A DNA stretch of 61,522 nt, the filler included. It is 7 parts of 7 records of this genome, joined end to end, with 100 filler letters (N's around TTAATTAATTAA, not from the genome) between each part and the next. Parts side by side here need not be neighbours in the genome. Positions count along the whole stretch, not along the records: positions 26,049 to 35,875 come from DRR378314_2337; 6 more parts are not named here. The stretch is one strand, 5' to 3'. The notes under the pieces were generated by a model that saw only the letters and a list, made by a program, of their open reading frames with translations, had not been told where the DNA came from and ran no database searches. Shown piece by piece: positions 9,672 to 55,571 of this stretch; positions within the stretch are counted from its first letter, which is position 1, and each line of letters opens with the position of its first letter. Position numbers and translations under genes: made by a program.

Positions 9672-9771
9672 NNNNNNNNNNNNNNNNNNNNNNNNNNNNN
9701 NNNNNNNNNNNNNNNTTAATTAATTAANNNNNNNNNNNNNNNNNNNNNNNNNNNNNNNNNNNNNNNNNNNN
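9672..9771. other. Artificial contig linker
   Basis: N44-TTAATTAATTAA-N44 (stops in all six frames); ORFs truncated on both sides. Confidence 0.99.
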
Positions 9772-19278: not shown

Positions 19279-19378
19279 NNNNNNNNNNNNNNNNNNNNNN
19301 NNNNNNNNNNNNNNNNNNNNNNTTAATTAATTAANNNNNNNNNNNNNNNNNNNNNNNNNNNNNNNNNNNNNNNNNNNN
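19279..19378. other. Artificial contig linker
   Basis: N44-TTAATTAATTAA-N44. Confidence 0.99.
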
Positions 19379-19635: not shown

Positions 19636-21879
19636 TCACAGCTTCAGCGTTCGAAGGCGCAATGCATTTCCGATCACAGATACCGACGAAAAGCTCATGG
19701 CTGCGGCGGCGATCATTGGTGACAGTAGCAGACCGAAGACCGGGTAGAGTACGCCTGCCGCAATCGGAACGCCAAGAGTGTTATAGCCGAATGCGAACAT
19801 CAGGTTCTCGCGGATATTACGCATAGTCGCGCGTGACAGTTCACGTGCCCGTGCCACACCCATGAGGTCACCCTGCACCAGCGTCACGCCCGCGCTTTCA
19901 ATTGCCACGTCCGTTCCTGTGCCCATGGCAATGCCTACATCTGCCTGGGCCAGGGCGGGGGCATCATTGATCCCGTCGCCTGCCATGGCAACGATTGCGC
20001 CCTGTGCCTGGAATTCCCTGACAACGGCGTTCTTGTCTTCAGGCGACACATTGGCCCGGACTTCATCGATGCCGACCTTGTCGGCAACCGCCTTGGCCGT
20101 TGCTTCATTGTCTCCCGTCAGCATGACGATCTTCAGGCCATCGAATTTGAGGCGGGCAATTGCCTCCTCTGTCGTGGCCTTGATTGGATCAGCGACGCCG
20201 ATCATCCCGGCGAACAGGCCATCAATCGCGGCCAGCATGACGGTTTGGCCTTCACTTCGATACTGATCAGCTTGATTGGTTAGCTCGCTCTCTTCGATGC
20301 CAAGGGACTTCATAAGTTTGGCGTTTCCGATGGCGATTGTCTTACCATCGACTTTCGCCTGAACGCCTTCCCCCGTAGTCGAAGAAAAATCGGTTGCCCC
20401 GGAAAGAGAAAGCCCTCTGTCCTTTGCGGCCGAGACGATGGCCTGAGCCAGAGGATGCTCGCTGGAGTTCTCTACGCTTGCAACTAGGCGCAAGAAATCG
20501 TTCTCGGATACCTTGCCTGAGGTAACAATGGTCTGCAGTTTCGGCTTTCCTTCCGTCAGTGTACCGGTCTTGTCGACAATTAGCGTATCGACCTTTTCGA
20601 AGGTTTCGAGTGCTTCGGCATTCTTGATCAGGACGCCAGACTGCGCGCCCTTACCTGTGCCGACCATAATGGACATGGGCGTAGCGAGGCCCAGCGCACA
20701 CGGGCACGCTATGATCAGCACTGCAACCGCATTCACGATGGCATATGCCATGGCCGGTTCGGGCCCAATCAGTGCCCAGACGATAAACGTCACGATAGAG
20801 ATCGCAATGACAGCGGGCACAAACCAGGCGGCGACAATATCGACCAACCTCTGGATTGGCGCGCGGCTGCGCTGTGCTTCGGCGACCATGCGGACGATCT
20901 GGGAAAGCACGGTGTCTTCGCCCACACGCAGAGTCTGAATAACTAGCGCACCTGTTCCGTTAATCGTTCCGCCCGTGACCTTGTCTCCGTCCGACTTTTC
21001 AACGGGAATCGGCTCACCCGTGATCATGCTCTCATCAACCGAACTTCTGCCATCCAGAACTTCGCCATCGACCGGCACACGCTCGCCGGGGCGGACACGG
21101 ACTTTCTCGCCTTGCTTCAGGTCATCGATGCTGACTTCTTCCTCGTCGCCATCCTCGCGGATTCGCCAAGCCGTTGGTGGGGTAAGTTCCAGGAGGGCGC
21201 GGATTGCGCCGGAGGTTTGGCTTCGGGCGCGCAACTCCAGAACCTGCCCAAGTAGCACGAGAGTCGTGATAACGGCAGCCGCCTCGAAGTACAGGGCGAC
21301 ACCGCCGCCGTGACCTCTGAAGGCTGGGGGAAACAGGCCGGGCACCAGCAGTGCAACGACGGAATAAAGGAAGGCCACGCTTACGCCCAAGGCGATCAGC
21401 GTGAACATGTTGAGGTTCATGGTCCGAACGGATCGGACGCCGCGAACAAGGAAGGGCCAGCCGCCCCACAGCACGACGGGCGTTGCCAGAATTAGCTGCA
21501 GCCAGCGGCTCCATGTCCCAGAGAGGAGATGCTCCAGTCCGGGAATCATCTCACCCATGGCAATGATGAAGAGCGGAGTAGACAGCGCAGCGCTTACCCA
21601 GAAGCGCCGCGTCATGTCCTTCAGTTCGCTGTCATCCTCTTCCTGCGGCGGGGCACCTTCCGGTTCGAGAGCCATGCCGCAGATCGGACAGCCTGAGTTG
21701 CGCACGTCCCGCACCTGCGGATGCATGGGGCAGGTCCAGACAGTGCCGGTATAGCCTGCAGGCACCTTGTCATAACGGGAGTCCCCGGACACTTCGGATT
21801 TTCCATGCGTGCAGTGGGAGTGCTTCGTATGGGCATGTGATTTGTGGTTATCGTGATTATGATGCTGATGGTCGGCCAT
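19636..21879 (-). CDS. Copper-translocating P1B-type ATPase
   Basis: His-rich N-terminus, TCPMHP/CPICGM metal domain, [33 protein letters not shown]...MxxSS. Confidence 0.95.
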
Positions 21880-21888
21880 GGCCGTCTC

Positions 21889-22701
21889 CTAGTACCAGGC
21901 CCGCAGGCCGACGACCCAGACCGTCTGGTCCCTGTCGCCTCCGGCGGCTTCGATGATGTCGCCCGTTTTGCCGGGCGCGGTATGGTATTCGACGCCCACA
22001 TAGGGGGCGAATTCCCGCTTCAATTCGTATCTGAGCCGCAAGCCAGCTTCGATGTTCGTTACTCCCGAACCAAGCTCACGTTCCGGTATATCCTGCGCTG
22101 ACAGGCTGAGTGCCGCGCGCGGCTGCAGGATAAGACGCTGGCTTAGCAGCAATTCATACTCGGCTTCGAATTCGGCTGTGACGTCGCCTTCCTCGCTGAG
22201 AAAAGCTGTGCCTTCGACCTCGAACCAGTACGGAGCCAGCCCCTGAAAGCCGACTGCCGCATGGGCAAGGCTTTCCGGTTCGAAATCATAACGCATGCCT
22301 GCCAGAAGATCGAAGTACGGAGAAACAGCCCGCGACCAGAGCAGCTGGACTTCGGCTTCTTCAAACTCATCGTCCTCGAAAGAATATTCGCCTTCCGTTT
22401 TCAGGTAGAGCTTGTTGGTGTCACCGCCATACCAGGCATCGGCATCCCAGACGCCCACTTCTTCATCGTCGGAGAACTGAATTTCAGCCCGGTCGACCAT
22501 GATCATGCCGAAGGCCTGATCGCCATTGTGAGCCAGCACGTGTTCGCGTGCCGCCGCCATCTCGGCCGGGTCGAAATACGCGTCCGCCTGGGACCAGGGT
22601 GTCTCGTCGGATTCAGAGGCGGTATGGTTGTGGTCCTGTGCCGCTGCCATCGCCGGTAAAGCGAGTGCGGCCGTCAGGGAAAGGATCAGCGTTTTCATCA
22701 C
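21889..22701 (-). CDS. copB: Copper resistance outer-membrane protein
   Basis: Signal peptide, FQGLAPYWFEVE, GLRLRYE, FAPYVG, C-terminal WY. Confidence 0.92.
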   Translation of the reverse strand: MMKTLILSLTAALALPAMAAAQDHNHTASESDETPWSQADAYFDPAEMAAAREHVLAHNGDQAFGMIMVDRAEIQFSDDEEVGVWDADAWYGGDTNKLYLKTEGEYSFEDDEFEEAEVQLLWSRAVSPYFDLLAGMRYDFEPESLAHAAVGFQGLAPYWFEVEGTAFLSEEGDVTAEFEAEYELLLSQRLILQPRAALSLSAQDIPERELGSGVTNIEAGLRLRYELKREFAPYVGVEYHTAPGKTGDIIEAAGGDRDQTVWVVGLRAWY

Positions 22702-24599
22702 TTCGACTCCTCTGTCATGTCGTGTCCCATGGCGGAGTGATCCATCTTGCTGTGATCCATCCCGTCATGGTCCATCATGTGATGATTCATCGGCTTCCCC
22801 TCTTTGTCCGGAAGGACGGAGACGACCTGCATCATACCGGCATGCATGTGGTAGAGCAGGTGGCAGTGAAACGCCCAGTCGCCGACATGATCGGCGGTTA
22901 CATCAAACGAGAGTTTCTCACCCGGCTTGACAATCACCGTGTGCTTACGCGGTTTGTGGTCGCCGCCGCCGTTGACGAGATCGAAGAACATGCCGTGCAA
23001 ATGGATCGGGTGCGGCATCATCGTATTGTTGATCAGCGTCACCCGCAGGCGCTCACCTTCATGGAAGATGATCGGTTCGGTGACTTCGGAGAATTTTACA
23101 CCGTCGAAGGACCACATGTAACGTTCCATGTTTGAGGTGAGATGGATCTCCATCTCCCGGCCCGGTGGCCGGAGGTCCGGGTTCCGGTCGAGGCTGCGTA
23201 GCTGCGAATAGCTCATCACCCGGTGGCCGACGTCTTCCAGGCCAATCCCCGGCTCATCAAGACGGCTTACGGGCATCATGGCGATATTGGTGACCCCTGG
23301 ACCCCGCTCGATAGCTTTCTTTTCAACGGGCCAGCCCGCATCGGCCATCATCGCCGCGTGGTCCATGCCGCTCATGTCATGATCGCCATGGTTCATCATG
23401 CCGTGTCCGGAGTGATCCATGCCGCCCATTTTTACGCCGGTCACCTCCATGCCGCCGGACAAGTCATGCCCCGTGGCCGCATGGTCCATGCCCATGTCCT
23501 TCATGGTGAGGGTCGGAACTGCGCGGAGGGCAGGTGCATCAGCGCGCATGCCGGGATGCGGGCCGAAGGTGGCCACAGCCTGTCCCGACCTGTCGATACT
23601 TTCGGCGACGAAAGCGATTGCCCGGTCATCTTTGGGCTCGATGATCATGTCATAGGTTTCGGCAACGCCCATCTGGAATTCATCCACTTCCAGCGGTTTC
23701 ACATTGAGGCCGTCGGCCGCCACAATGGTCATCGGAAGGCCGGGCATACGGACGTTGAAATTCGTCATGGCAGAGGCGTTGATGATGCGCAGCCGCACCC
23801 GCTCGCCGGGCGTGAAGATGCCATTCCAGTTATCCGATGTGCTGTGGCCATTGATCAGATAGTGATAGGTCGCCCCGGTCACGTCCGCGATGTCGCGTGG
23901 CGACATGCGCATCTGTCCCCACATGGCGCGGTCAGACCAGGCAGCGCCAAGACCGTTCTCCTTGGCATCCTGAAGGAAGTCACCGATAGTCCGCTGCTGG
24001 AAGTTCATGGTGTGACCCATCTTCTTCAGCTTCGCGAAGATGCGGTCAGCCGATGTGAAGCTCCAGTCGGACAGGACCAGTACATATTCCCGGTCATAGT
24101 GCACAGGATCATGATGCTTCGGATCGATAATGATCGGGCCGTAATGGCCTTCTTGTTCCTGCAGGCCAGAATGGGAATGATACCAGTAAGTGCCGGACTG
24201 CGGCACCGCATATTTGTAGGTGAACGTCTCGCCCGGCCTGATGCCGGGGAAGGTCACGCCCGGCACGCCATCCATCTGGAAGGGCACAAGCAGGCCGTGC
24301 CAGTGAATGCTAGTGTCGGTATCGAGCGTGTTGGTGACGTTGAGCGTGATCTCGTCTCCTTCGCGGAATCGGATCAGCGGGGCGGGCAGCGTTCCATTGA
24401 CGCCGGTAGCTTCGCCAACCCGTCCATCGATCCGCACGGGAAATTTCCCAATACTTAGATCGAATTGCGTTGCGGTTTCCGGGGAAAGCCCGAGATTGCC
24501 GTCGCTGGCACTGCGTGCCCATGCGGGCAGAAGTGATGACACGCCAAGGGAGAGGCCCCCGAAGAGGGATGAATGTAGAAATCGCCTGCGGCTGAACAT
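22698..24599 (-). CDS. copA: Periplasmic multicopper oxidase (CopA/PcoA type)
   Basis: Tat signal SRRRFL, HWHG, WYHSH, HPIHLHG, HCHLLYHM; Met/His-rich MDH repeats. Confidence 0.95.
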   Translation of the reverse strand: MFSRRRFLHSSLFGGLSLGVSSLLPAWARSASDGNLGLSPETATQFDLSIGKFPVRIDGRVGEATGVNGTLPAPLIRFREGDEITLNVTNTLDTDTSIHWHGLLVPFQMDGVPGVTFPGIRPGETFTYKYAVPQSGTYWYHSHSGLQEQEGHYGPIIIDPKHHDPVHYDREYVLVLSDWSFTSADRIFAKLKKMGHTMNFQQRTIGDFLQDAKENGLGAAWSDRAMWGQMRMSPRDIADVTGATYHYLINGHSTSDNWNGIFTPGERVRLRIINASAMTNFNVRMPGLPMTIVAADGLNVKPLEVDEFQMGVAETYDMIIEPKDDRAIAFVAESIDRSGQAVATFGPHPGMRADAPALRAVPTLTMKDMGMDHAATGHDLSGGMEVTGVKMGGMDHSGHGMMNHGDHDMSGMDHAAMMADAGWPVEKKAIERGPGVTNIAMMPVSRLDEPGIGLEDVGHRVMSYSQLRSLDRNPDLRPPGREMEIHLTSNMERYMWSFDGVKFSEVTEPIIFHEGERLRVTLINNTMMPHPIHLHGMFFDLVNGGGDHKPRKHTVIVKPGEKLSFDVTADHVGDWAFHCHLLYHMHAGMMQVVSVLPDKEGKPMNHHMMDHDGMDHSKMDHSAMGHDMTEESK

Positions 24600-25948: not shown

Positions 25949-26048
25949 NNNNNNNNNNNNNNNNNNNNNNNNNNNNNNNNNNNNNNNNNNNNTTAATTAA
26001 TTAANNNNNNNNNNNNNNNNNNNNNNNNNNNNNNNNNNNNNNNNNNNN
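25949..26048. other. Artificial contig linker
   Basis: N44-TTAATTAATTAA-N44. Confidence 0.99.
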
Positions 26049-26186
26049 TGCTGAGTGGGGAGTCCATATCATTCGTTAACTGTATCTAGCCAAGAAGGTA
26101 AAGGTAGTGTATTTACATTAAACCTACCTTATTGCACTTAAATTCAGACATTGAACTTTTGTAGAGTAATAAATAATAAATGACAC

Positions 26187-26303
26187 TACTACTTTAAGTA
26201 GCTTTTGTTCAACTTCTACAACATTTTTACCCATGGCAAATTTAGTGCGATTAGATACTCGATCAATATGAGTATCCACGGCTATGGTAGGGCAGTCAAA
26301 AGA
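26187..26303 (-). pseudogene. nth: Endonuclease III internal fragment (copy 3; putative att scar)
   Basis: Minus strand reads SFDCPTIAVDTHIDRVSNRTKFAMGKNVVEVEQKLLKVV, matching Nth AFGWPTIAVDTHIFRV...GKNVEQVEEKLLKVV; no start codon, truncated at both ends. Confidence 0.9.
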
Positions 26304-26361
26304 TAAGTAGGGTAGATTTGCAAAATCAAACGAGTTTTACACATCAACACTTTAGTTATTA

Positions 26362-27033
26362 TCACTTGAGCGTATTCTTCTTATCGATATTGATGGGGTT
26401 TTTATCGAGTAAAGTGAGTGTTTTTAAATCATGTAACCATAAATTTTTGATGGTAGGTGTTATTGATATAATCAATAAGAGCGCCATGATCATGTTAAAT
26501 CTCTTAATGTATTTACTACTGGTAAAATGCTTTTTTAAAAAAGCCCCAAAAAATACCCAAATACCAACACATATTGGTCCCGCTATCAAAAATGAACAGG
26601 TAAGTAGCAGTATTTGACTAATGTATGAATTGCCAGCTGTGGTATATGCTGACACTGCACTTAGGCATACTATCCATGCTTTTGCATTTACCCATTGAAA
26701 TAGTAAGCCTTTTGAGAAACTTAACGGTTTATCGTATTTGAAATTCTCGTTTCCCTCACCGCTGTTTGCTATGACAAAAGCTAAATAGAGCAAATAAGCG
26801 ATACCGATAACTTTTATGTAAATCGTCAGCTGAGGGAACAAAGAAAAAACTTGTCCAAACCCAAGACCAACGATAAACAGCATAATGGAAAAGCCGATGC
26901 TAATTCCCCATAGCAAAGGCAAACTCTTTCTGGCGCCAAAACTAACAGCAGAAGCCATTGCCATAATAGTATTTGGTCCGGGTGTAACAGATGCAGAAAT
27001 TGAAAAGATAATCACGGAGATTAAATACTCCAT
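26362..27033 (-). CDS. LysE-family exporter
   Basis: TPGPNT, YLLYLAF, FQWVNAKAW. Confidence 0.9.
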   Translation of the reverse strand: MEYLISVIIFSISASVTPGPNTIMAMASAVSFGARKSLPLLWGISIGFSIMLFIVGLGFGQVFSLFPQLTIYIKVIGIAYLLYLAFVIANSGEGNENFKYDKPLSFSKGLLFQWVNAKAWIVCLSAVSAYTTAGNSYISQILLLTCSFLIAGPICVGIWVFFGAFLKKHFTSSKYIKRFNMIMALLLIISITPTIKNLWLHDLKTLTLLDKNPINIDKKNTLK

Positions 27034-27090
27034 AAAAGCTCCTGTACGGCCTATATTATCAATTACAGTTATATTTGACGTTATAAAGGG

Positions 27091-27792
27091 TTAGGTTATT
27101 TTTCCATCACTAAAATAATAAGCGATGAGGCCTAAGGAGTTGATCAACCCATGCGCAATGATCAGTGGGAATAATTTTCGACCGTTATATAAATATACCA
27201 AAGCGAAAATGACAGCTACAACACCCGTGCTAATAATTCCTGGTATACCTTGAGATATATGAAGCATACCAAAAATAGTCGCGTGCAAGACAACGGCTGA
27301 AAAAATGCCTGCTTTCCTTTCTCCAAATAACGACATTAGGCTGTTCAATAAAAAACCACGCATTAATAGCTCTTCACCTATCGCTGCACCAACCCAAATT
27401 ACGACTAGTAAATATATAGCTAAATACAAAGGATTACCTAATAAGAATTCAAACCTATCGGTAGAACTTTTGGGTATGGTGACATCAAGGGCACTTGAAA
27501 TAATTGGAACTACTGCTGCCATAAATGCGAGCACTATCACCACTATTAAAATGGCAATGCCTATAGATTTGAACAAACTTCTCCCATCAGTAGGTAAGTT
27601 AAATCCGCGACTTTTCCATGTGATGTCTTGTTTCTTCATAAAGTATGTTGCGACAAATATTCCACACCACATTGCGATTGAACCCGCACCAATAACACTT
27701 AACCTGTCTGCGATGTCTTTAACGAGTAACATTACGCCCAGGACTACAACAACTTCAAAAATTGTTTGTTGTTTCGAAGTTAACTTTATCAT
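27091..27792 (-). CDS. CPBP/Abi (CAAX-type) intramembrane protease
   Basis: EELLMRGFL, FGMLH, AHGLIN motifs. Confidence 0.9.
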   Translation of the reverse strand: MIKLTSKQQTIFEVVVVLGVMLLVKDIADRLSVIGAGSIAMWCGIFVATYFMKKQDITWKSRGFNLPTDGRSLFKSIGIAILIVVIVLAFMAAVVPIISSALDVTIPKSSTDRFEFLLGNPLYLAIYLLVVIWVGAAIGEELLMRGFLLNSLMSLFGERKAGIFSAVVLHATIFGMLHISQGIPGIISTGVVAVIFALVYLYNGRKLFPLIIAHGLINSLGLIAYYFSDGKIT

Positions 27793-27930
27793 TATCAAAT
27801 TTTTCCTAATATTGCCGAGCTTTAACTTTTCGGTGGTATTGTATTGGCCTATTAAAATAATGGTTTAGTCCTTATTATTTAAATGATAATATTTAATTGA
27901 TTTATTAGTAAAAGAGATAATTGGTTTCTA

Positions 27931-28860
27931 ATGGCATTACATCCAGCAACGTTAACTTGTCTTCAAGTATTTAGCGCAATAGTTGAAGAGGGTGTTTTTA
28001 GTAGGGCATCTGAACGGTTGGGGTTGACGCAAAGCGCGGTAAGCCACCGAATAAAACAATTGGAAGAAATCACAGGTGTAACACTTATTAATAGAACAAC
28101 GAGATATATGAAGGTGACTGATGTTGGCCAACGTTTATATAATCAGTCTCGACTGAATCTTGTTGAACTAGAGCGTACATTATCCAGTTTGAAAAGCATG
28201 TCTGAAGCTCCTTTAAGTTTAACCACTATATCGTCATTAGCGACCAAGTGGTTGCTACCTAAACTCAGTGAGTACAACCAAGAACACCCTAATCAGCCAT
28301 TATCGGTGCTAACTGATGATAAAATTATCGACTTAAATTATGAAGGCATCGATGCCGCAATACGCCTAACCGATATTAACGATCCTGCTCTGCATATGAC
28401 CTTTATTTGTGATGAATGGGTTTTTCCCGTAGCAAGTGGTGCTATAGCTAAAGATGAAAATATTATTGCTCAACCAAACCTGTTATTAGATTTTCCTTGG
28501 CTTATAGATGTTATTGCTGAAAAAGGAAGTGATGAAAGCTCTTGGAAAGGTTGGCTCAGCAACCAAGCACTAGGTTTTCCTGACAATCATAAGAAGCAAA
28601 GCTTTAACCGAACTGACATTGCACTTCAGGCGGCGGCGGCGGGGCAAGGGGTTGCCATCGCTAGGGCAAGTTTAGTTGAAACAGATATGCTGGAAATGAA
28701 ACTTTTTAAACAAGTAGGACGTGCAGTAAAGATGAAATATTCATATTATTTTGTATGTCCTCATGAAAAGGCAGATCACCCTGTGATAGCCAACCTTAGA
28801 GATTGGATATCCAAAGAACTAAAGGCATCAGTGAGCAGAGTTAAGCAGCATATTTGTTAA
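27931..28860 (+). CDS. LysR-family regulator (GcvA-like)
   Basis: LTQSAVSHRIKQLE, WLLPKL, AAAAGQGVAI; divergent from CPBP-lysE. Confidence 0.9.
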   Translation: MALHPATLTCLQVFSAIVEEGVFSRASERLGLTQSAVSHRIKQLEEITGVTLINRTTRYMKVTDVGQRLYNQSRLNLVELERTLSSLKSMSEAPLSLTTISSLATKWLLPKLSEYNQEHPNQPLSVLTDDKIIDLNYEGIDAAIRLTDINDPALHMTFICDEWVFPVASGAIAKDENIIAQPNLLLDFPWLIDVIAEKGSDESSWKGWLSNQALGFPDNHKKQSFNRTDIALQAAAAGQGVAIARASLVETDMLEMKLFKQVGRAVKMKYSYYFVCPHEKADHPVIANLRDWISKELKASVSRVKQHIC

Positions 28861-29015
28861 ATACAATACACGTGAAATAAAGTGTCTAATTAACTAGGGA
28901 TAGATAATTGGCATGTGTGTAAATGCGTTAGCATTTAATAGTCCAATAAGTCGGTTGCATTAAGCATAATTCCAGAATACTCATCTTTCAGCTTGTGTAA
29001 TTAATGTGAACCTAG

Positions 29016-29263
29016 TTATTCACTCTGGTCTTTAAACTCACACAAATCTTCAATAATACAAGCGCCGCACTTGGGTTTACGGGCTACGCAAGTATATCGA
29101 CCCTGAAGAATAAGCCAGTGATGCACATCGACTTTAAATTCTTTCGGTACAACTTTTAGACGTTTCTGTTCAACCTGTACTACGTTTTACCCATCGCAAA
29201 TTTAGTGCGATTGGATACGCGGCCGATGTGGGTGTCTACAGCGATAGTAGGCCAGCCAAAAGA
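29016..29263 (-). pseudogene. nth: Endonuclease III 3' segment (copy 2; putative att scar) with one frameshift
   Basis: FGWPTIAVDTHIGRVSNRTKFAMGK/(1-nt deletion)/[55 protein letters not shown]; includes the CX6CX2CX5C 4Fe-4S motif. Confidence 0.93.
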
Positions 29264-29375
29264 TAATTAAAGTAGGCATTGTGACTGACTCAATTTTTAG
29301 ATCTGCTTTTAGCCAAAAGCTGAGCTTAACTCTTGAGTTACTAAAATCAGTTTAGCAGAGCCTAAAATCGACAAA
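29251..29375. repeat. Palindromic-unit array abutting the nth junction
   Basis: Half unit AAAGTAGGCATT ending at 29280; units TAGATCTGCTTTTAGCCAAAAGCTGAGCTT (29298) and ~29343; homologous to 34589-34710. Confidence 0.65.
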
Positions 29376-29517
29376 ATGCCTTTATGAAATAAACCGCAAC
29401 CTAATCTAAGACCTGGCCTCTGCTAGTTTATGAGGCTAAACCAATCTGTTAGCCGACTATCAGTTTCAAATACGCGAGAAAGTTATATTTAACGAAAAAT
29501 AGCAAAACGCGTTTTAT

Positions 29518-31587
29518 TTAATTACTAGAGAATACATCGAAATTTCGATTCTTCGTATAAGCATATACAAGAGACATTTTTGAAATATCAAATCGGGATG
29601 GTAATTGGTCTGCCAAAATATCAATTTTCTTCGTTTTTTCTGAATACCTTTTTATTGCGTTTTTTTGTCCTAATGCTAACCAGTACCATTGTTCACCATA
29701 CTTCTTAATATTTAAAGAACGATGAGTAATTAAGGAAATATCATCAGTCGGAGTATTTGTATCTATCGTTCCATTTGGTCCTGATTTCACAATATTGTTT
29801 TGGTCTACCCAAATAGTGTTTCCAGAATTACTTGCATGCTGGACATATTTCCAATTGGGCGATTCAATTGATGAAATTTCACTCATTAAGTCATAAATAT
29901 GAACTTGCCATTTACCTTGTTTCTTCATGCTAAAACTAATTTGTTGATCTGTTTTGAACGATACAGCGCGCAGTTCCTGCTCTGGTAAAGGTAATTTGGT
30001 GACTTTAAAATCAGATAAATTAATATAAAATATACTATTGATACCCAGTGCTATTAGCGCTTGGCCATTTGGAGAAAACTTCAAATCGAAGTAGTGATTT
30101 TGGTTATCAAAGTTAGTTAGCTTTAAGCGCTTTTCTGTCACAACATCATAAAGCCATATTTGTTCACTGCCTGTAGCTTCACTTATATAAGCTACTGCTT
30201 TACCGTTTGGAGAAAATGCTGGTAGCCTGTCACTAACACTAGCATTTGCAATAGTTTTGCTGTTCCCATTAATTAGATCTACAAGTTTAATATCTTTGTT
30301 ATGCCTACCTGCAACATATAAATAGTCCGTGCCGTTACTATGTCTGTAGGGTCTTACGATTTGTTCACTGGCAGAAAAAATAATTTCTTTTTCCTTACCT
30401 GATAAATCATAGCTAGCCAATTGATATGATGGGAAACCATCCATAAGGACAATTCTGTCTCCTTGGTGAGACCATATTCCGCAGCAAATATAAGCATTTT
30501 GCTTGAACAGTAAATTAAGTTTTTCACTATCTAAATCAAGAGAGTAAAACCCTACCCACTGCTTTTCATCAGGCGATGAAATGAGAAGCTTGTTTTTTGT
30601 TGGGTGGAGATCAAATTGACTATTTCCTGCCAGATGAACACTCGGCTGATTTAATCGTGTTTTTATTTTGGTTTTAAGATTTAACTCAAATAATTCATAG
30701 GGTGTACCAGCCCCGTTATTTTCTGAAAATACAACTGTATTCTTATCGTGGGTATACGACATCCCCCCATAACTTCCTTTATTACAAGTATAAATTAATT
30801 CTGGCTCTTCTAATTGCAGACCATTAACGGCTCTAGTGTAGTATTGGCAAGTATTGACACTAGTTACCAAGTAAACTATTTCTTTACCGTCTGGGCTCCA
30901 ACTCGCAGGACCAACATCTGCATCATTACTATGTTGCACATATACTTTCTCATGACTTTTTAAACTTTTGATGACAAGGTTAATTTGGTTGTCTGATGTA
31001 ATCGACATATAGCTAATTCTAGTGCCATCAGGAGAAATCGAAGGTTGAACTTCATTACCGGCATCAGTGGTAAGAACAATTGAACCTGAAATTTTAATGT
31101 CTTTATTTATTGTTAGCTCAGAACTAGGTTTTTTTTGAACAAATAGCAACCAAGAACAAAATATAGCAATTAACAGAAAAGTTGCTAGTAACAAAAGTTT
31201 GTGATTACTTTTTCTAATTATTTCGTTGCTTCGATCAGCATGTATTTCGATCAAAGGTTGTTTTTCTTTATAATCAGCTAAAGGTTGAACATTAGCGATA
31301 AACTTGTAACCTTTTTTTGGAAAAGTAGCGATAAAGTTAGGCTTTCTTGCATCATCTAGAAATACTTTCCTGAGCTTTGTGATAATCCTAGTCACAGCAT
31401 TATCGGAAACAATGCGCCCTTGCCATACATATTCAATTAGTCGGTCTTTACTAATGATTTCATTCGGATGCTGACAAAAGTAAACTAAAAGCTCTACCAT
31501 CATAGGTTCTAACTGGCTCGAACCATCCTCAGATATCAAAGTCTGCTTTTCGTCACAAAAAATATAATGATTAATTTGCCAACGCAT
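29518..31587 (-). CDS. CadC/ToxR-like transmembrane one-component regulator (wHTH + TM + TolB/PD40 propellers)
   Basis: LEPMMVELL...VWQGRIVSDNAV...IATFPKKGYKF, a single TM, SPDG/WSPDG/FSPNG repeats; start set at MRWQ. Confidence 0.88.
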   Translation of the reverse strand: MRWQINHYIFCDEKQTLISEDGSSQLEPMMVELLVYFCQHPNEIISKDRLIEYVWQGRIVSDNAVTRIITKLRKVFLDDARKPNFIATFPKKGYKFIANVQPLADYKEKQPLIEIHADRSNEIIRKSNHKLLLLATFLLIAIFCSWLLFVQKKPSSELTINKDIKISGSIVLTTDAGNEVQPSISPDGTRISYMSITSDNQINLVIKSLKSHEKVYVQHSNDADVGPASWSPDGKEIVYLVTSVNTCQYYTRAVNGLQLEEPELIYTCNKGSYGGMSYTHDKNTVVFSENNGAGTPYELFELNLKTKIKTRLNQPSVHLAGNSQFDLHPTKNKLLISSPDEKQWVGFYSLDLDSEKLNLLFKQNAYICCGIWSHQGDRIVLMDGFPSYQLASYDLSGKEKEIIFSASEQIVRPYRHSNGTDYLYVAGRHNKDIKLVDLINGNSKTIANASVSDRLPAFSPNGKAVAYISEATGSEQIWLYDVVTEKRLKLTNFDNQNHYFDLKFSPNGQALIALGINSIFYINLSDFKVTKLPLPEQELRAVSFKTDQQISFSMKKQGKWQVHIYDLMSEISSIESPNWKYVQHASNSGNTIWVDQNNIVKSGPNGTIDTNTPTDDISLITHRSLNIKKYGEQWYWLALGQKNAIKRYSEKTKKIDILADQLPSRFDISKMSLVYAYTKNRNFDVFSSN

Positions 31588-31643
31588 ATAAAATATTTTA
31601 ACAAAGGTAAGTATCTGAAAATTAACATACACCCTCCATTTAG

Positions 31644-31692
31644 TCACATAAAATCATAACAAATCACAAGATTATCACGACTTATTTTCACC
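31644..31692. promoter_or_regulatory. Phased TCA(C/T) direct repeats, probable wHTH binding site
   Basis: TCACA/TCATA/TCACA/TCACG at 31644, 31654, 31664, 31675 in the divergent promoter. Confidence 0.55.
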
Positions 31693-31747
31693 ATTCCCTT
31701 AACTTCTTTTCGCAATCTAAATTTATTGAACTAAAAAGCAGGTACCT

Positions 31748-33262
31748 ATGAATAAAGCGTCTTATCTATTGGCCATTGCAGCTTCTATTTCTCTAACGTC
31801 ATGTTCTGTGAGCGGTACAAAAAGTGAAGCGACATTAAGGGCTGCGAGTGTTTGTTTTTCAACTAACTCAAGTGCAGATATTAAAGCCCAATTTGAAAAC
31901 GGTATCGTGTCGAAAACGATATTCACTAACAAAGAGGAATCTTTATCTAGCATTGAAGAACGGTTAGAAGATCTTAATATTCCTTCCCTTTCATTAGCTG
32001 TAATGAACGGTGGTATTATCGAGTGGTCTGCTATTTATAATTCACCATCAAACAAAGCGCTAATAGATTGTAATACACGTTATCAAGTGGCTTCATTATC
32101 AAAGCCTGTCACTGTCATGGCTGCGATCCGCATGCAATCAAATGGGTATATCGATCTAAATGAAAATATCGAAAACTATTTAAAGAGCTATAAACTGCCA
32201 AAAGGCAAGCAAACGAAGAGTGCGCCTATTACGATTAAAAATACGCTAGATCACTCTTCGGGGATTAATTCTGGAGGTTTTTTAGGGTATCAACAAGGTT
32301 CGCCTATACCATCTGATATTGAAATATTAAAAGGTAATAAGCATTCAAATTCAGCACCTTTATCTGTTGTTAGTAAACCAGGAGTGCAACTTGCTTATTC
32401 AGGAACAGCATATACGTTAGCTCAAGTTGCATTAAAGGATATATTCAAAAAAGATTTTTCCAGCATTATGGATAAATGGATCTTGTCGCCGTTGGGGATG
32501 GAAAACTCCAGTTATCGTTCTCCTGATATATCTTCTAAAAATCAACCAAACTCAAAAATACAGGCAATTTCAATTGCTAAAGGGCATGACTCTGATGGTA
32601 AAGAAATAGAAGGTGGTTGGAGAGTTCATCCTGAACTAGCCGCCGCTGGAATGTGGAGTAACGCCAATGATATGGCTACTTTTATGCTTGAAATATACAA
32701 AGGCTACCAAGGCAAGAGTACTTTGTTTTCTCAATCAGAGATAAAGCAAATGCTTGAAAATGAAAAAGGTGGCCACGTTTATGGGTTTATTTTAAACCAT
32801 GAAGGTGATGACATTACTCTCACCCATTTTGGCGGTAATGTGGGTTACCGAGCTGGCATGACTATTAGCTTAAAAACGGGAGATGGCTTAGTTTATTTAC
32901 TTAATTCTGACAATGGTGCAGCGTTAGGAAACCAATTAATGATGACCGCATCAAAACTGTACGATTGGTCCAGCTTTAAACAAATCATCAAAACCAAACG
33001 TGAAGCCAAGATGGAGATATTGAAGTCTCTAGTAGGTAATTACTTGTGGAACGAGCAACTAGCGTTATCCATTAGTTATGAAGATGAACATCAACAGATT
33101 TCACTGCATTTCCCCAATGGTGATCAATACAAACTCACTCCTATAAAAGGAGTTGGTAAATCCTTTATACATCAGGACACTGCCACACTTGTCTCTTTTA
33201 ACTCATGGGATAAAGAGACTGAATTTACTGTATATGGACAACGAGCTGTAAGAATGAAATAA
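31748..33262 (+). CDS. Serine hydrolase (beta-lactamase class C-like) lipoprotein
   Basis: Lipobox LTSC, ASLSK (SxxK), LAYSG, HFGGNVGY, extra C-terminal domain. Confidence 0.85.
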   Translation: MNKASYLLAIAASISLTSCSVSGTKSEATLRAASVCFSTNSSADIKAQFENGIVSKTIFTNKEESLSSIEERLEDLNIPSLSLAVMNGGIIEWSAIYNSPSNKALIDCNTRYQVASLSKPVTVMAAIRMQSNGYIDLNENIENYLKSYKLPKGKQTKSAPITIKNTLDHSSGINSGGFLGYQQGSPIPSDIEILKGNKHSNSAPLSVVSKPGVQLAYSGTAYTLAQVALKDIFKKDFSSIMDKWILSPLGMENSSYRSPDISSKNQPNSKIQAISIAKGHDSDGKEIEGGWRVHPELAAAGMWSNANDMATFMLEIYKGYQGKSTLFSQSEIKQMLENEKGGHVYGFILNHEGDDITLTHFGGNVGYRAGMTISLKTGDGLVYLLNSDNGAALGNQLMMTASKLYDWSSFKQIIKTKREAKMEILKSLVGNYLWNEQLALSISYEDEHQQISLHFPNGDQYKLTPIKGVGKSFIHQDTATLVSFNSWDKETEFTVYGQRAVRMK

Positions 33263-33330
33263 CGCCAACACGCCTCGTTAACAATGAGCGTGAATGACAC
33301 CCGAAAGCAATTTACTAAAAGGAAAAAAAG

Positions 33331-34083
33331 ATGAAAACACTAACGGCGATAATACTAACATTACTGATACTCACGGCAAATGCGACAGCAGAGCCTAGAA
33401 AAAAAATATTAATAGTTGCCTCTAATATGATTGATATGGGCGATCCTGAAAAACACGACGCAAGAAATAATTTATGGGAATTCGCTCCGCCGTATCATAT
33501 TTTTGTTAGTCATGGATTTGATGTCGACTTTGTATCACCTCAAGGTGGAAAAGTGGATTTTATGATGGATCCATTAGGTATTAGTAGTTACACCATCAAG
33601 TATGAAGGTTTTCTAGAAAAAACGAACAGTTCATTATCGCCTGCTCAAACTGATCCAAATGACTACTGGGGAGTATTCATCGGTGGTGGTTACGGGGTTA
33701 TGTTTGACGTTGCAGATAATAAGGAAATACATTCGATTATAAGCCGGGTATATGAATCAGGTGGTATTGTCGGTGTCGGCGGTCATGGCTCAGCAGGCAT
33801 CGTAAACGTAAAATTACCGAACGGTGAATTTTTGGTGAAAGGAAAAAAAGTGGCCGGTTTTCCTAACTCTACCGAAAAATCTAAATCATGGGCAAAGCAA
33901 GGGACACTTTTGCCTTTTCTTATTGAAAGTCAGTTAAATAAAAATGGCGCTATCGCTCAGAATAAGAAAACACTAAAAGATAAACATGCAGTAGTAGTAG
34001 ACCAACGAATCGTCTCAACAATGTTCTTGCCTCCAGCAGCACTTGTCGCAAAAGAAATGATTTTATTGAAAGAAGCTAAATAA
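33331..34083 (+). CDS. Secreted DJ-1/PfpI (Hsp31-like) protein lacking the nucleophile Cys
   Basis: Signal peptide, WEFAPPY, VSPQGG, GGGYG, GGHG in place of xCHG. Confidence 0.8.
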   Translation: MKTLTAIILTLLILTANATAEPRKKILIVASNMIDMGDPEKHDARNNLWEFAPPYHIFVSHGFDVDFVSPQGGKVDFMMDPLGISSYTIKYEGFLEKTNSSLSPAQTDPNDYWGVFIGGGYGVMFDVADNKEIHSIISRVYESGGIVGVGGHGSAGIVNVKLPNGEFLVKGKKVAGFPNSTEKSKSWAKQGTLLPFLIESQLNKNGAIAQNKKTLKDKHAVVVDQRIVSTMFLPPAALVAKEMILLKEAK

Positions 34084-34367
34084 AGCGCCGATGACGCAAG
34101 TAGCTTATGCTACTTAGCAATGCGCTCGATTTTTATTTGAATTAAGTACAACAAGGAAACTGACTGCATGGTTAACCCACTAAAATATTAAACTTTTATC
34201 GTATCGTAATTACCAGCTTGATGTTGAACAGCGACGCACACGGGCAGGTTGGTGGTAGTGCGGGCTACGATAGCTCTTTACGAGCAATTGAACCTAAAAG
34301 TATACCTTTAATGCCGGACTTGCTGGTTCCTCTTCGCCTCAAATAGGTAGATTAATAGTGGCGAAAA

Positions 34368-34549
34368 GTCACAGGCGCGTAATTTACAGTCTAACGCCAA
34401 ATTAAACATCGTTAATTCTCGCAGTTTATTTGCCAGCTCTAACCGTATTCTAATTAACCATATTTCTTTGAGTTTTAGAGAAAATTTTAACCAGCTAGTT
34501 TGCCTTTATTCCAGCAAGATTTTCGTGAAGTTGATTTGCTCTCGACCGT
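34368..34549 (-). pseudogene. Small tyrosine recombinase/integrase N-terminal remnant
   Basis: GGAG RBS, ACG (probable mutated ATG), then WNKGKLAG*/(frameshift)/LKLKEIWLIRIRLELANKLRELTMFNLALDCKLRACD; matches the WNKGKLVGQK...LFNLAIDSKLRGCD phage-integrase family N-terminus, including the catalytic Arg. Confidence 0.8.
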
Positions 34550-34588
34550 GATAATGCTCCTTTCATGAAGGGACTATAAGTATGACTG

Positions 34589-34802
34589 GGAGCACTGAAT
34601 TTATTAATAGCAGGCATTGTGCGTATGTAAGTGAGAAATGCTTCACTTAGCCAATTTCGGACATTGGTTTTTGAGTTACTAATGGCAGCTCAGAGCCTGA
34701 AGCGGACATCGCTCTTTTGTGATGCCATAATCATGCTAAGGATAATATTAAACCAAGATTTCAACTTATTTGTGACGCGGGTTCAAGCTCATTGCAGCCG
34801 TA
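34589..34802. repeat. Palindromic-unit array upstream of the integrase remnant
   Basis: Units at 34589 (ends ATAGCAGGCATT), 34636 (AAATGCTTCACTTAGCCAATTTCGGACATT), 34681 (AATGGCAGCTCAGAGCCTGAAGCGGACATC), weak unit at 34773. Confidence 0.65.
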
Positions 34803-34882
34803 ACAATTTGCGTTTTTAAAACAAAAAACGACTATTTTAGTAATTTCACTTTCCTTGATTCTAATTTTTAATTACTAGGGGC

Positions 34883-34977
34883 TATGTAAGTAATACCTGT
34901 CTTTATGTCAGTGATACTTGACACCTATTAACTTTAATGTAATGCTTACCTTACATTATGTCATGAGCTGGTGACAT
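34883..34977. promoter_or_regulatory. Four TGT(C/A)A-N8-T(G/T)ACA operators in two tandem pairs
   Basis: Units at 34883, 34904, 34936, 34957 (21-bp spacing within pairs; the first has a degenerate right arm), upstream of the membrane protein/XRE operon. Confidence 0.7.
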
Positions 34978-35024
34978 GATTAGATAGTTGATTAACGATA
35001 GCAAGGTAAAGACCGGAGGTTAAA

Positions 35025-35432
35025 ATGAGTAATGAATTAGATAAAAAGGAAAAGAAGTTTCTAGTCAAATTTATGTTGCATATAGCGATGTTTTTAGCGG
35101 TTTTAGCGATATCAGTAGTAATGAATGAGACCAATAATTTGTCTATATACAGCACTGGATTCCTCGCAATGTCTCCTGTAATTCCTGTGATATTTTTATT
35201 GCGGCTGGTGGTAAATCATTATAGGTCATTAGATGAATACATCCAGAGAGTAATGGGTGAAAGTTTGCTTTGGGCTGTAGGTGTTGTTGGCTGTGTGGCA
35301 ATGGCTTATGGGTTGCTGGCAGAAATGGTTGAGGTGCCAAGCTTTAGCCCCGCCTTTATGTTACCAGCAATAGCGGTCATCTTTGGTGTAGCGCAGTTTA
35401 TTAAACTATCGGGCAATACCCATGAAGAATAG
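35025..35432 (+). CDS. Four-TM membrane protein
   Basis: GGAGG RBS, hydrophobic helices with LDEY motif; overlaps the downstream XRE gene. Confidence 0.8.
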   Translation: MSNELDKKEKKFLVKFMLHIAMFLAVLAISVVMNETNNLSIYSTGFLAMSPVIPVIFLLRLVVNHYRSLDEYIQRVMGESLLWAVGVVGCVAMAYGLLAEMVEVPSFSPAFMLPAIAVIFGVAQFIKLSGNTHEE

Positions 35433-35616
35433 GTTACGGGTACTTCGTGCAGAAAAAGGCTGGTCTCAAGCAGATCTTGCTGAAAAGTTAGGAGTGTCAC
35501 GTCAAGCCGTGAACGCTATAGAAACAGGGAAACATGATCCTTCTTTAACTCTTGCTTTTGCTCTTGCGGATGCTTTTGGACAACGCATTGAAGATTTGTT
35601 TTTGCACAAAGGGTAA
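35422..35616 (+). CDS. XRE-family HTH regulator
   Basis: MKNRLRVLRAEKGWSQADLA...VSRQAVNAIETGKHDPSL. Confidence 0.92.
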   Translation: MKNRLRVLRAEKGWSQADLAEKLGVSRQAVNAIETGKHDPSLTLAFALADAFGQRIEDLFLHKG

Positions 35617-35627
35617 ATCTTAAACAA

Positions 35628-35749
35628 TATACCTTCTTTTGGCGAACTGTCGTCGTTATTCTGTGCGAATAATGCATGTCTGCTTTGTCGGAGAACTTGT
35701 CGTTAGATAAGCCAAGGCTAATGTCAGCTGTCGTATCAAAGTAGACAAA
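35628..35749. repeat. Three palindromic units immediately downstream of the nth stop
   Basis: 35628, 35675 (CATGTCTGCTTTGTCGGAGAACTTGTCGTT), 35720 (AATGTCAGCTGTCGTATCAAAGTAGACAAA); periods 47 and 45. Confidence 0.65.
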
Positions 35750-35751
35750 AG

Positions 35752-35875
35752 TTATTCTGTCTTATCTTTAAACTCGCACAAGTCTTCGATAATGCAGCTG
35801 CCACATTTAGGTTTGCGGGCGGTACACACATAGCGGCCGTGTAGAATCAACCAGTGGTGCACATCAACTTTAAAC
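35752..35875 (-). CDS. nth: Endonuclease III 3' end (copy 1; intact reading frame, runs off the contig)
   Basis: [40 protein letters not shown]; cannot tell whether this is the functional gene or another fragment. Confidence 0.85.
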
Positions 35876-35975
35876 NNNNNNNNNNNNNNNNNNNNNNNNN
35901 NNNNNNNNNNNNNNNNNNNTTAATTAATTAANNNNNNNNNNNNNNNNNNNNNNNNNNNNNNNNNNNNNNNNNNNN
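35876..35975. other. Artificial contig linker
   Basis: N44-TTAATTAATTAA-N44. Confidence 0.99.
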
Positions 35976-42681: not shown

Positions 42682-42781
42682 NNNNNNNNNNNNNNNNNNN
42701 NNNNNNNNNNNNNNNNNNNNNNNNNTTAATTAATTAANNNNNNNNNNNNNNNNNNNNNNNNNNNNNNNNNNNNNNNNNNNN
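42682..42781. other. Artificial contig linker
   Basis: N44-TTAATTAATTAA-N44. Confidence 0.99.
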
Positions 42782-55471: not shown

Positions 55472-55571
55472 NNNNNNNNNNNNNNNNNNNNNNNNNNNNN
55501 NNNNNNNNNNNNNNNTTAATTAATTAANNNNNNNNNNNNNNNNNNNNNNNNNNNNNNNNNNNNNNNNNNNN
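55472..55571. other. Artificial contig linker
   Basis: N44-TTAATTAATTAA-N44. Confidence 0.99.

Follow-up and report, generated by a model that had tools for sequence, protein, structure and literature searches.

Fragments of the endonuclease III gene nth as probable attachment-site scars of a large serine recombinase clade in Alteromonadales-type bacteria

Why should one bacterial contig carry the 3' end of a housekeeping gene three times on the same strand, with unrelated genes between the copies? The question is raised by a 61.5-kb stretch of DNA (61,522 nucleotides (nt), hereafter the window), in which three 3' copies of nth, the gene for endonuclease III, all lie on the minus strand and delimit two cargo modules. 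The finding is confined to a single contig of the window (positions 26049-35875; 9827 nt, G+C content (GC) 0.37). It is likely that this contig is a piece of an additive, nth-anchored island, and that its nth fragments, together with a 20-nt motif in front of them, are attachment-site (attR) scars left by a clade of large serine recombinases (LSRs). The pattern itself is real, recurrent and mechanistically informative.

The copies were located by tblastn with a Thalassotalea Nth query and by an nhmmer profile, which found exactly three copies on the contig and no others. The tblastn matches are 35875..35755 for copy 1 (residues 171-210, E 1e-21), 29263..29016 for copy 2 (residues 129-210, E 1e-28) and 26303..26187 for copy 3 (residues 129-167, E 3e-12), where the nth similarity ceases after KLLKVV. 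A first-pass annotation made from the sequence alone had described three same-strand nth segments and a start point and non-nth flank common to copies 2 and 3, and all of these were recovered. Copy 1 is indeed present; however, it is not a separate segment as had been supposed. It stops exactly at the contig edge, and record 4 of the likely source run (X1) extends from 35875 into the 5' part of nth at canonical length; copy 1 (35752..35875, minus strand; residues 171-210 plus the stop codon, ending ...KDKTE-stop) is thus the tail of an intact, functional gene cut by the contig end. It is of the canonical, attB type and lacks the P' insertion described below. Copy 2 (29016..29263, minus strand) is a displaced 3' fragment that runs from the AFGWP codons to the stop codon (residues 129-210) and is a pseudogene, damaged by a 1-nt deletion that shifts the frame and by an H-to-Q change. 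Copy 3 (26187..26303, minus strand) is a displaced fragment truncated at its 3' side (residues 129-167). Both displaced copies begin at the same codon, behind the common non-nth flank CTAC..TTATCTTTTG. In the attR core of copy 2 (29250..29277, minus strand), a P arm (minus strand CTACTTTAATTATCTTTT) is joined to nth GGCTGGCC; in that of copy 3 (26290..26317, minus strand), a diverged P arm (CTACCCTACTTATCTTTT) is joined to GACTGCCC. All nth copies of the window are of the canonical type. As a separate observation, three unrelated fragments are truncated near the same Nth residue (166-169), namely at 26187-26200 of the window, at 14297 of L066 and at about 14700 of L157; they adjoin, one each, the start of an insertion sequence (IS)-like open reading frame (ORF), the start of gloA and, in the window, an AT-rich repeat at the contig end.

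Can the repeats be an artefact of assembly? The window is composed of seven contigs joined by six N44-TTAATTAATTAA-N44 linkers (9672-9771, 19279-19378, 25949-26048, 35876-35975, 42682-42781 and 55472-55571), and the GC of the contigs ranges between 0.37 and 0.61. More than one organism is probably present in the source assembly, and contigs side by side across a linker are therefore not neighbours in the genome. Such joining of contigs of very different GC, together with contig ends that fall in repeats, would fit chimeric joins as the origin of the repeats or of their order. This explanation is hardly credible, as an independent metagenome contig runs across copy 2 into the DNA on either side (L123, 97% identity), another covers the CadC-like and hydrolase genes of the module between copies 1 and 2 (cargo A; L130, 98% identity), the Logan assembly of run X1 contains the identical 9827-nt piece, and dozens of finished or draft genomes show the same architecture. 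The possibility of a chimera, raised in the first-pass annotation itself, is in this way removed for copy 2. Run X1 contains at least one further nth tail (record 5), with 44 nt identical to 35832-35875 before it diverges into 2.6 kb of other DNA, so the array of the likely source genome is longer than the window shows. A closely related isolate from another study (run X9) shares cargo A, copy 2 and the module between copies 2 and 3 (cargo B) and has a different distal end, which means that the locus is polymorphic among close relatives. Runs X2, X4 and X9 show little or no cover across 26377-26972 (the LysE region), a mere hint of variability in LysE and copy 3. Contig joints that might have represented excised circles or empty sites were explained by paralogous nth copies mapping onto one another; contigs are blind to rare forms.

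The next question is whether the arrangement recurs. Species-representative genomes were scanned with the copy-2 peptide, and 80 nth loci were retrieved, each with 10-kb flanks. Extra nth 3' fragments (one to four) were present at 24 of the 80 loci, always downstream of nth and on the same strand, and the largest array, in one genome, consists of nth and six fragments within 20 kb. Arrays were seen in Colwelliaceae, Thalassotalea, Alteromonas, Paraglaciecola, Pseudoalteromonas, Catenovulum, Shewanella, Neiella, Rheinheimera, Psychrosphaera and others. With additional arrays fetched by the motif, the totals are 54 fragments and 54 inter-copy modules, the latter 0.7-8.5 kb in size (median 2.2 kb). 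The fragment starts at Nth residues 123-135 in 42 of the 54. Among those 42, the conserved 20-nt motif, which is not nth and is called the P arm here (CTACNTTNNTTATCTTTT), stands in register directly before GGCTGG in 33 and is shifted by 1 nt in two more. Of 401 genomes sampled from the order, 24 contain the motif with its core and 3 contain the reversed control. Four of five array genomes carry the motif at the nth locus only; the fifth has none at up to 3 mismatches. On the far side the arrays are bounded by gloA or, in Pseudoalteromonas, by the ancestral neighbour, an Orn/Lys/Arg decarboxylase gene. A fixed hotspot, partial repeats of the target and genome-specific cargo between nth and gloA or the decarboxylase gene are thus all found, as in additive flexible islands. 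The first-pass annotation had pictured nth as a recurrent site-specific hotspot with tandem accretion; the count of truncated copies downstream of nth in relatives and their fixed start codon bear this out, and the cargo varies across the group instead of being fixed and syntenic. Viral contigs contained neither a P-arm nor an nth-fragment match, and there is accordingly no sign of a phage carrier.

Which recombinase is linked to the site? A metagenome scan with the motif gave 14 contigs, and homologues of an LSR were then sought in two genome samples. Of these contigs, L119 encodes a resolvase-domain protein of 554 residues, which begins about 60 nt from the motif and points away from the nth fragment. 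In all five homologues with at least 51% identity (L119, G399, G519, G667 and G595), the P arm and an nth fragment (residues 125/130-210) lie 60-100 nt from the LSR start in divergent orientation; this layout is absent in a 45% homologue (G446) and in the distant ones checked (L133-L151, five others). The L119 protein matches Resolvase (2e-15), Zn_ribbon_recom (7e-5) and, weakly, Recombinase (0.033), and has a coiled-coil-like segment at 380-470. The homologues in G399, G595 and G519 are built like it, and the zinc ribbon matches range from 3e-5 to 7e-5. It is thus in proteins of related loci, not of the window, that the LSR architecture is found. The clade comprises about 54 clusters at at least 45% identity, from Alteromonadales-type genera plus one Vibrio record; its nearest relatives outside share at most 35% identity, its members are named just "recombinase family protein", and a sequence search of the PDB returned no relative at E <= 0.001. 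The earlier analogy to tyrosine integrases of the icd/prfC/dusA kind does not hold at this point, the recombinase linked to the site being an LSR. In G446 (C1:4381382-4419371), nth is cut after residue 134 and followed by a complete divergent nth-like gene (41% identity, 233-residue frame); the 45%-identical LSR lies 23 kb further and is followed by canonical nth fragments. This has the look of an island variant in which a whole spare endonuclease III takes the place of a replacement end.

The state of the functional gene beside these recombinases is informative. In G399, G595 and G519, nth is 657 nt long, not 630 nt, and sits 65, 12.6 and 11.3 kb, respectively, upstream of the LSR and its fragment; the nth of G667 is also 657 nt and lies on another contig than the LSR and fragment. 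The 3' part of this P'-type nth is a distinct lineage, which reads LKDNEGRYF-IAVDTHIQRVANRTGYAKGK... after GW, versus PT-IAVDTHIFRVSNRTK... in the canonical type. The inserted DNA, AAAAGATAATGAAGGTAGAT, repeats exactly, in inverted orientation, the motif that precedes the fragments, and this inverted repeat lies within the functional nth of G399, G245, G595 and G519. By comparison, the integration point falls at the GW codons of the Nth motif AFGW-PT-IAVDTH, and the inserted arm is read in frame as GW-LKDNEGRYF-IAVDTH, with 7 extra residues. On this sequence comparison, the motif is taken to be the P arm of the element's attachment site and the nth insertion its P' arm; the mended nth would then be attL, and the P arm with the displaced end would be attR. 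G399, G595 and G519 show this layout, with a P'-type nth on the left and a P arm plus canonical fragment on the right. The predicted attP, which adjoins the LSR gene, is a roughly 48-bp imperfect palindrome around GGC-TG-GC, ATCTACCTTNATTATCTTTTGGC-TG-GCTAAAAGATAATNAAGGTAGAT. Six genomes whose nth 5' parts diverge have the P'-type end in common, which marks this end as element-borne. An attL-type pattern was found in 6 of the 401 sampled genomes and in none of the control. Elements that carry a replacement nth end, as the first-pass annotation had proposed, therefore exist, in the form of the P'-type end. A P'-type nth also persists without such an LSR in G245, G147 and G185. The P arm and the nth stop region were also compared by eye as possible inverted repeats, with an unconvincing outcome. 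On the minus strand at 29290-29330, a hairpin-like GCTTTTGGCTAAAAGC lies about 25-45 nt before the P arm; it also occurs at the right ends of cassettes with different cargo in L073, L083, L121, L123 and L127. It resembles the attP centre minus 4 nt, and a related GCTGACATTAGCC motif follows some nth stop codons.

The LSRs ride on mobilizable islands of 11-65 kb with a relaxase and defence-type cargo. The islands of G595 and G519 (12.6 and 11.3 kb) contain the LSR, a Mob_Pre relaxase (PF01076), an AAA_25 or VapE-like protein and defence-like genes (C5 methylase, SMC_N/AAA_21 ATPase, and PIN-TPR-GreABC with HetE-N); no mating-pair genes were found among their ORFs. The 65-kb island of G399 carries an Xre antitoxin, TraI/TrwC pieces (a TraI-like helicase and a truncated TrwC), an IS element, a type I restriction-modification system and RhuM, with the LSR at its right end. 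From their gene content, the islands of G595, G519 and G399 are classed here as integrative mobilizable elements, a class to which the modules of the window do not belong.

Based on the results presented above, a course of events may be proposed. An LSR island would integrate within the GW codons of nth and mend the gene with its own 3' end, so that the P' arm is translated in frame and the displaced old end remains behind the P arm. Subsequently, nth would regain its canonical attB form, through either a precise excision of the island or gene conversion with the displaced copy as donor. With nth back in this form, attB would be free for the next insertion; modules would consequently pile up and the copies would be homogenised. 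The two modules of the window, like those of most arrays, would be recombinase-less passengers or remnants that were locked in after nth reverted. Modules may spread or be reshuffled when a visiting island acts in trans, or through homologous recombination at the conserved inner edges of the repeats.

Several results weigh against this reading. The crossover at the central TG is predicted from the symmetry of the site, and recombination itself is likewise a prediction. The contig of the window has no Resolvase, Phage_integrase or relaxase match, and a tblastn search of the window with the LSR was empty; the ORF scans of the 24 arrays and of five large arrays revealed no LSR, relaxase or other recombinase. 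A homologue of this LSR is missing from four of the five array genomes tested, anywhere in the genome, and its present-day action there is consequently not shown. The nth of the small-cassette arrays is of the attB type, which is not what simple LSR integration predicts; in the window and in most arrays, the canonical gene is accompanied by attR scars alone. In the fragments f1 and f2 of G245 and in those of G147 and G185, the P arm is replaced by another left arm, ..CAACTGCGATAAT.C.T.TTTGG, which may represent a second att subtype or a second recombinase. The distance between the ends of cargo ORFs and the P arm is 15-250 nt; large islands that decayed at random would leave wider gaps. Furthermore, neither flanking nth fragment travelled with the one cassette that could be traced between families (described below), and its transfer would need an added step, conversion or homologous exchange. 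The fragments with the other left arm (L083, which is G245, f1 and f2; L157, which is G147; and L158, which is G185) begin earlier than most, at residues 119-127, and f1 of G245 is itself P'-type.

Could a different enzyme make the insertions, namely a tyrosine integrase or the host XerCD? A tyrosine-integrase-like motif in the window, read by eye, would fit this, as would the fact that XerCD-type enzymes are the sole tyrosine recombinases common to the array genomes (four of five); a search for any other shared tyrosine recombinase in the five array genomes gave none besides the Xer-like ones. We regard this explanation as very unlikely. Pfam scans covered 107 ORFs of the 24 arrays, 46 ORFs beside nth in fragment-free loci, 48 ORFs of the five large arrays and 33 ORFs of metagenome contigs, and none of these has a Phage_integrase match; neither tyrosine nor serine recombinases occur among the first three sets. 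The genome with six cassettes has 4 tyrosine recombinase genes, none of them near nth. The "integrase remnant" that the first-pass annotation placed at about 34100-34900 could not be confirmed, with zero matches in Pfam, in PHROGs and by tblastn to all loci. The P arm pairs palindromically with P' beside the LSR gene, and its likeness to dif is weak. The P arm was considered as a dif-like site in its own right and compared by eye; the result was unconvincing, and the site lies in nth, not at dif.

If the LSR reading is retained, how did the small modules come to lack a recombinase? Their cargo consists of units of 1-3 genes, in both directions and frequently with their own regulator (AraC, LysR, AsnC, MarR, TetR or CadC-like). 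The partners are hydrolases (Beta-lactamase family, esterases, S9/S15/S41 peptidases, DJ-1, GST, GNAT), transporters and two-component systems. In Pseudoalteromonas neustonica (L066, 10278-14072), one module is a single 1264-residue SIR2 + NB-ARC/STAND protein of defence type. The best-traced case is a 4.63-kb cassette with an S15 peptidase and a CadC-like regulator. Thalassotalea castellviae and Pseudoalteromonas ostreae share it at 96.7% identity over its whole length; in the same pair of genomes, nth is 72.7% and the upstream genes are 68.7% identical. The block of identity begins no more than about 15 nt past the stop codon of the fragment before it, and its other end falls within the P arm. 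The fragments on its two sides are 70-80% alike between the genomes, and 96% and 90% alike within each genome. In general, nth fragments mostly find their best match in another copy of their own genome, as concerted copies do. The 3' part of the functional nth is also mosaic in some lineages (Pseudoalteromonas L052 versus L033: 5' part 91%, 3' part 78.5%); in the 5'/3' comparison of all pairs, the mean difference in identity is -5.8 (sd 4.2). The first-pass annotation had given each module its own replacement end of about 250 bp. Element-borne ends do exist, as described above; for the modules of the window, such an end is not shown, given that the traced cassette moved without its flanking fragments.

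These data bear on two further explanations. One is that the small modules are not decayed islands but cassettes mobilised in trans, forming an integron-like pool, with cargo and a single att site on a circle that the LSR of a visiting island inserts and excises; we hold this to be possible and rather doubtful. The compactness of the modules agrees with it, as do the short distances between cargo ORFs and the P arm and the occurrence of the same module in two families with boundaries at a stop codon and a P arm. In addition, about 30 nt beyond the P arm are common to cassettes with different cargo and resemble the LSR-proximal sequence of G595. However, arrays with attR and no attL are bounded in such a way that an LSR would be unable to excise the units, a circle without the P' nth end would break nth upon insertion, and no circle or empty site appeared in the contigs compared, in which rare forms are invisible. 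The other explanation is that, after the first LSR events, modules were exchanged purely by homologous recombination, with the nth fragments, nth and gloA as portable homology. To this we also give only a limited chance. The edges of the 96.7% block match the two most conserved stretches of the repeats (roughly 30 nt at the very end of nth, and the P arm with the nth start), the fragments are homogenised within genomes, and the Alteromonas additive islands are reported to swap cassettes across genera (PMC4898812). Against this, insertion duplicates a repeat, which a double crossover alone would not do; a Campbell-type single crossover predicts one donor-type flank, and none was seen for L008 and L052; and the arms are just 70-80% identical between families.

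A broader view may be built on the island reading, and it is put forward tentatively, as an idea that we would not favour at present: nth in Alteromonadales-type bacteria might host an integron-like gene capture run by a serine recombinase in trans. Rare LSR islands would visit, insert and leave, regenerating the canonical attB, and each visit would drop off or pick up recombinase-less cassettes of 1-3 genes that end in a P arm. If this were true, the array would be a cassette library shared between families, with a recombination site within the reading frame of a DNA-repair enzyme. The recombinase-less arrays in any case raise the question of how cargo spreads between families at 97% identity without flanks, and culturable strains of Pseudoalteromonas, Thalassotalea and Alteromonas make this question addressable.

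How does the proposed nth system compare with known ones? The staphylococcal cassette chromosome (SCC) is inserted by Ccr large serine recombinases at the 3' end of rlmH/orfX and forms composite arrays as well as ccr-less pseudo-SCC arrays. It is similar in that an LSR enters the 3' part of a housekeeping gene that is kept functional, and in its tandem units with repeated att sites, many of them recombinase-less. The nth system differs in host group, target and LSR clade, and also in its replacement end of about 250 nt with an in-frame P' arm and a 7-residue insertion, and in its passengers of 1-3 genes. SCC at rlmH may be the closest working analogue. Islands with tyrosine integrases at dusA, icd, prfC and yicC restore a protein-coding target: they interrupt it and repair it with an end of their own, and the displaced piece shows where the island stops. 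In the nth system the recombinase class is another, and the predicted attP is palindromic with a short central overlap and relies on no long block of identity; Pfam scans of the arrays and the window found no integrase gene at an island end. The tycheposons of Prochlorococcus and their cargo-only satellites reportedly have tandem cargo modules, partial repeats of the target and mostly no recombinase in the module itself; they are said to use tyrosine recombinases and tRNA targets, unlike the nth system. Integrons share with the nth arrays the compact, promoter-proximal array, modules of 1-3 genes that end in a site scar, and cassettes common to different taxa. On the other hand, the nth arrays are without IntI, attI and attC, their LSR-type sites lie inside a housekeeping gene, and module genes point both ways; no Phage_integrase match was found in or beside any array, and the repeats are nth fragments plus the P arm.

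The additive islands of Alteromonas are described in the main text of PMC4898812 as hotspots with variable cassettes and a partial repeat of the target gene downstream, with nearly identical cassettes in different species and genera; six of their eight hotspots are at tRNA or tmRNA genes. They are like the nth arrays in hotspot, cassettes, partial target repeats and sharing across taxa. The terms "nth", "endonuclease" and "serine recombinase" are absent from its main text, which defines no att site or recombinase for the nth locus. The full-text literature searched contained no description of nth as an integration target; supplementary tables, TIGER/Islander and lists of LSR targets lay outside that search and may name it. 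The general pattern of such islands is already in print (PMC4898812). The present analysis offers a concrete, testable pair of recombinase and att site for one additive-island hotspot. For the hotspots of marine gammaproteobacterial additive islands, whose mechanism has so far been vague, a specific pair is thereby predicted. The route into an essential-type gene would be unusual, with half of a phage-style attP palindrome serving as an in-frame insertion beside the catalytic Asp. The predicted attB/attP and the clade of roughly 50 LSR clusters are also candidate tools for genome engineering.

The remaining features of the contig were annotated with Pfam families. Next to copy 1 lies a small cassette part (35025..35616), which consists of a membrane protein without a Pfam family (35025-35432, plus strand) and an XRE helix-turn-helix regulator (35422-35616, plus strand); module 1 of Catenovulum sediminis L022 matches this part at 90.3% identity over 677 nt. 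It is followed by a non-coding or decayed stretch in which no family was detected (34084..35024). Cargo A comprises a DJ-1/PfpI-family protein (33331..34083, plus strand; PF01965, 6e-06, at the cut-off), a Beta-lactamase-family serine hydrolase (31748..33262, plus strand; PF00144, 2e-33) and a CadC-like regulator with a Trans_reg_C winged helix and a PD40 beta-propeller (29518..31647, minus strand). An nhmmer search found no further decayed cassette boundary within this module. Cargo B comprises a LysR-family regulator (27931..28860, plus strand), an Rce1-like/CPBP membrane protease (27091..27798, minus strand) and a LysE-type exporter (26362..27033, minus strand). Apart from the integrase remnant, the cargo labels of the first-pass annotation (LysE, CPBP, LysR, CadC-like, serine hydrolase, DJ-1 and XRE) agree with these families. 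Beyond copy 3 there is an AT-rich tail without assignment (26049..26186), whose final 30 nt are common to two other contigs of the source run, which identifies them as a repeat at the assembly break.

Elsewhere in the window, the contig region at 19636-24599 (GC 0.58) contains a heavy-metal P-type ATPase-like ORF of 747 residues, an ORF of 270 residues and an ORF of 633 residues rich in His/Met motifs. From their translations, judged by eye, these look like a copper-resistance cluster, unrelated to the nth contig.

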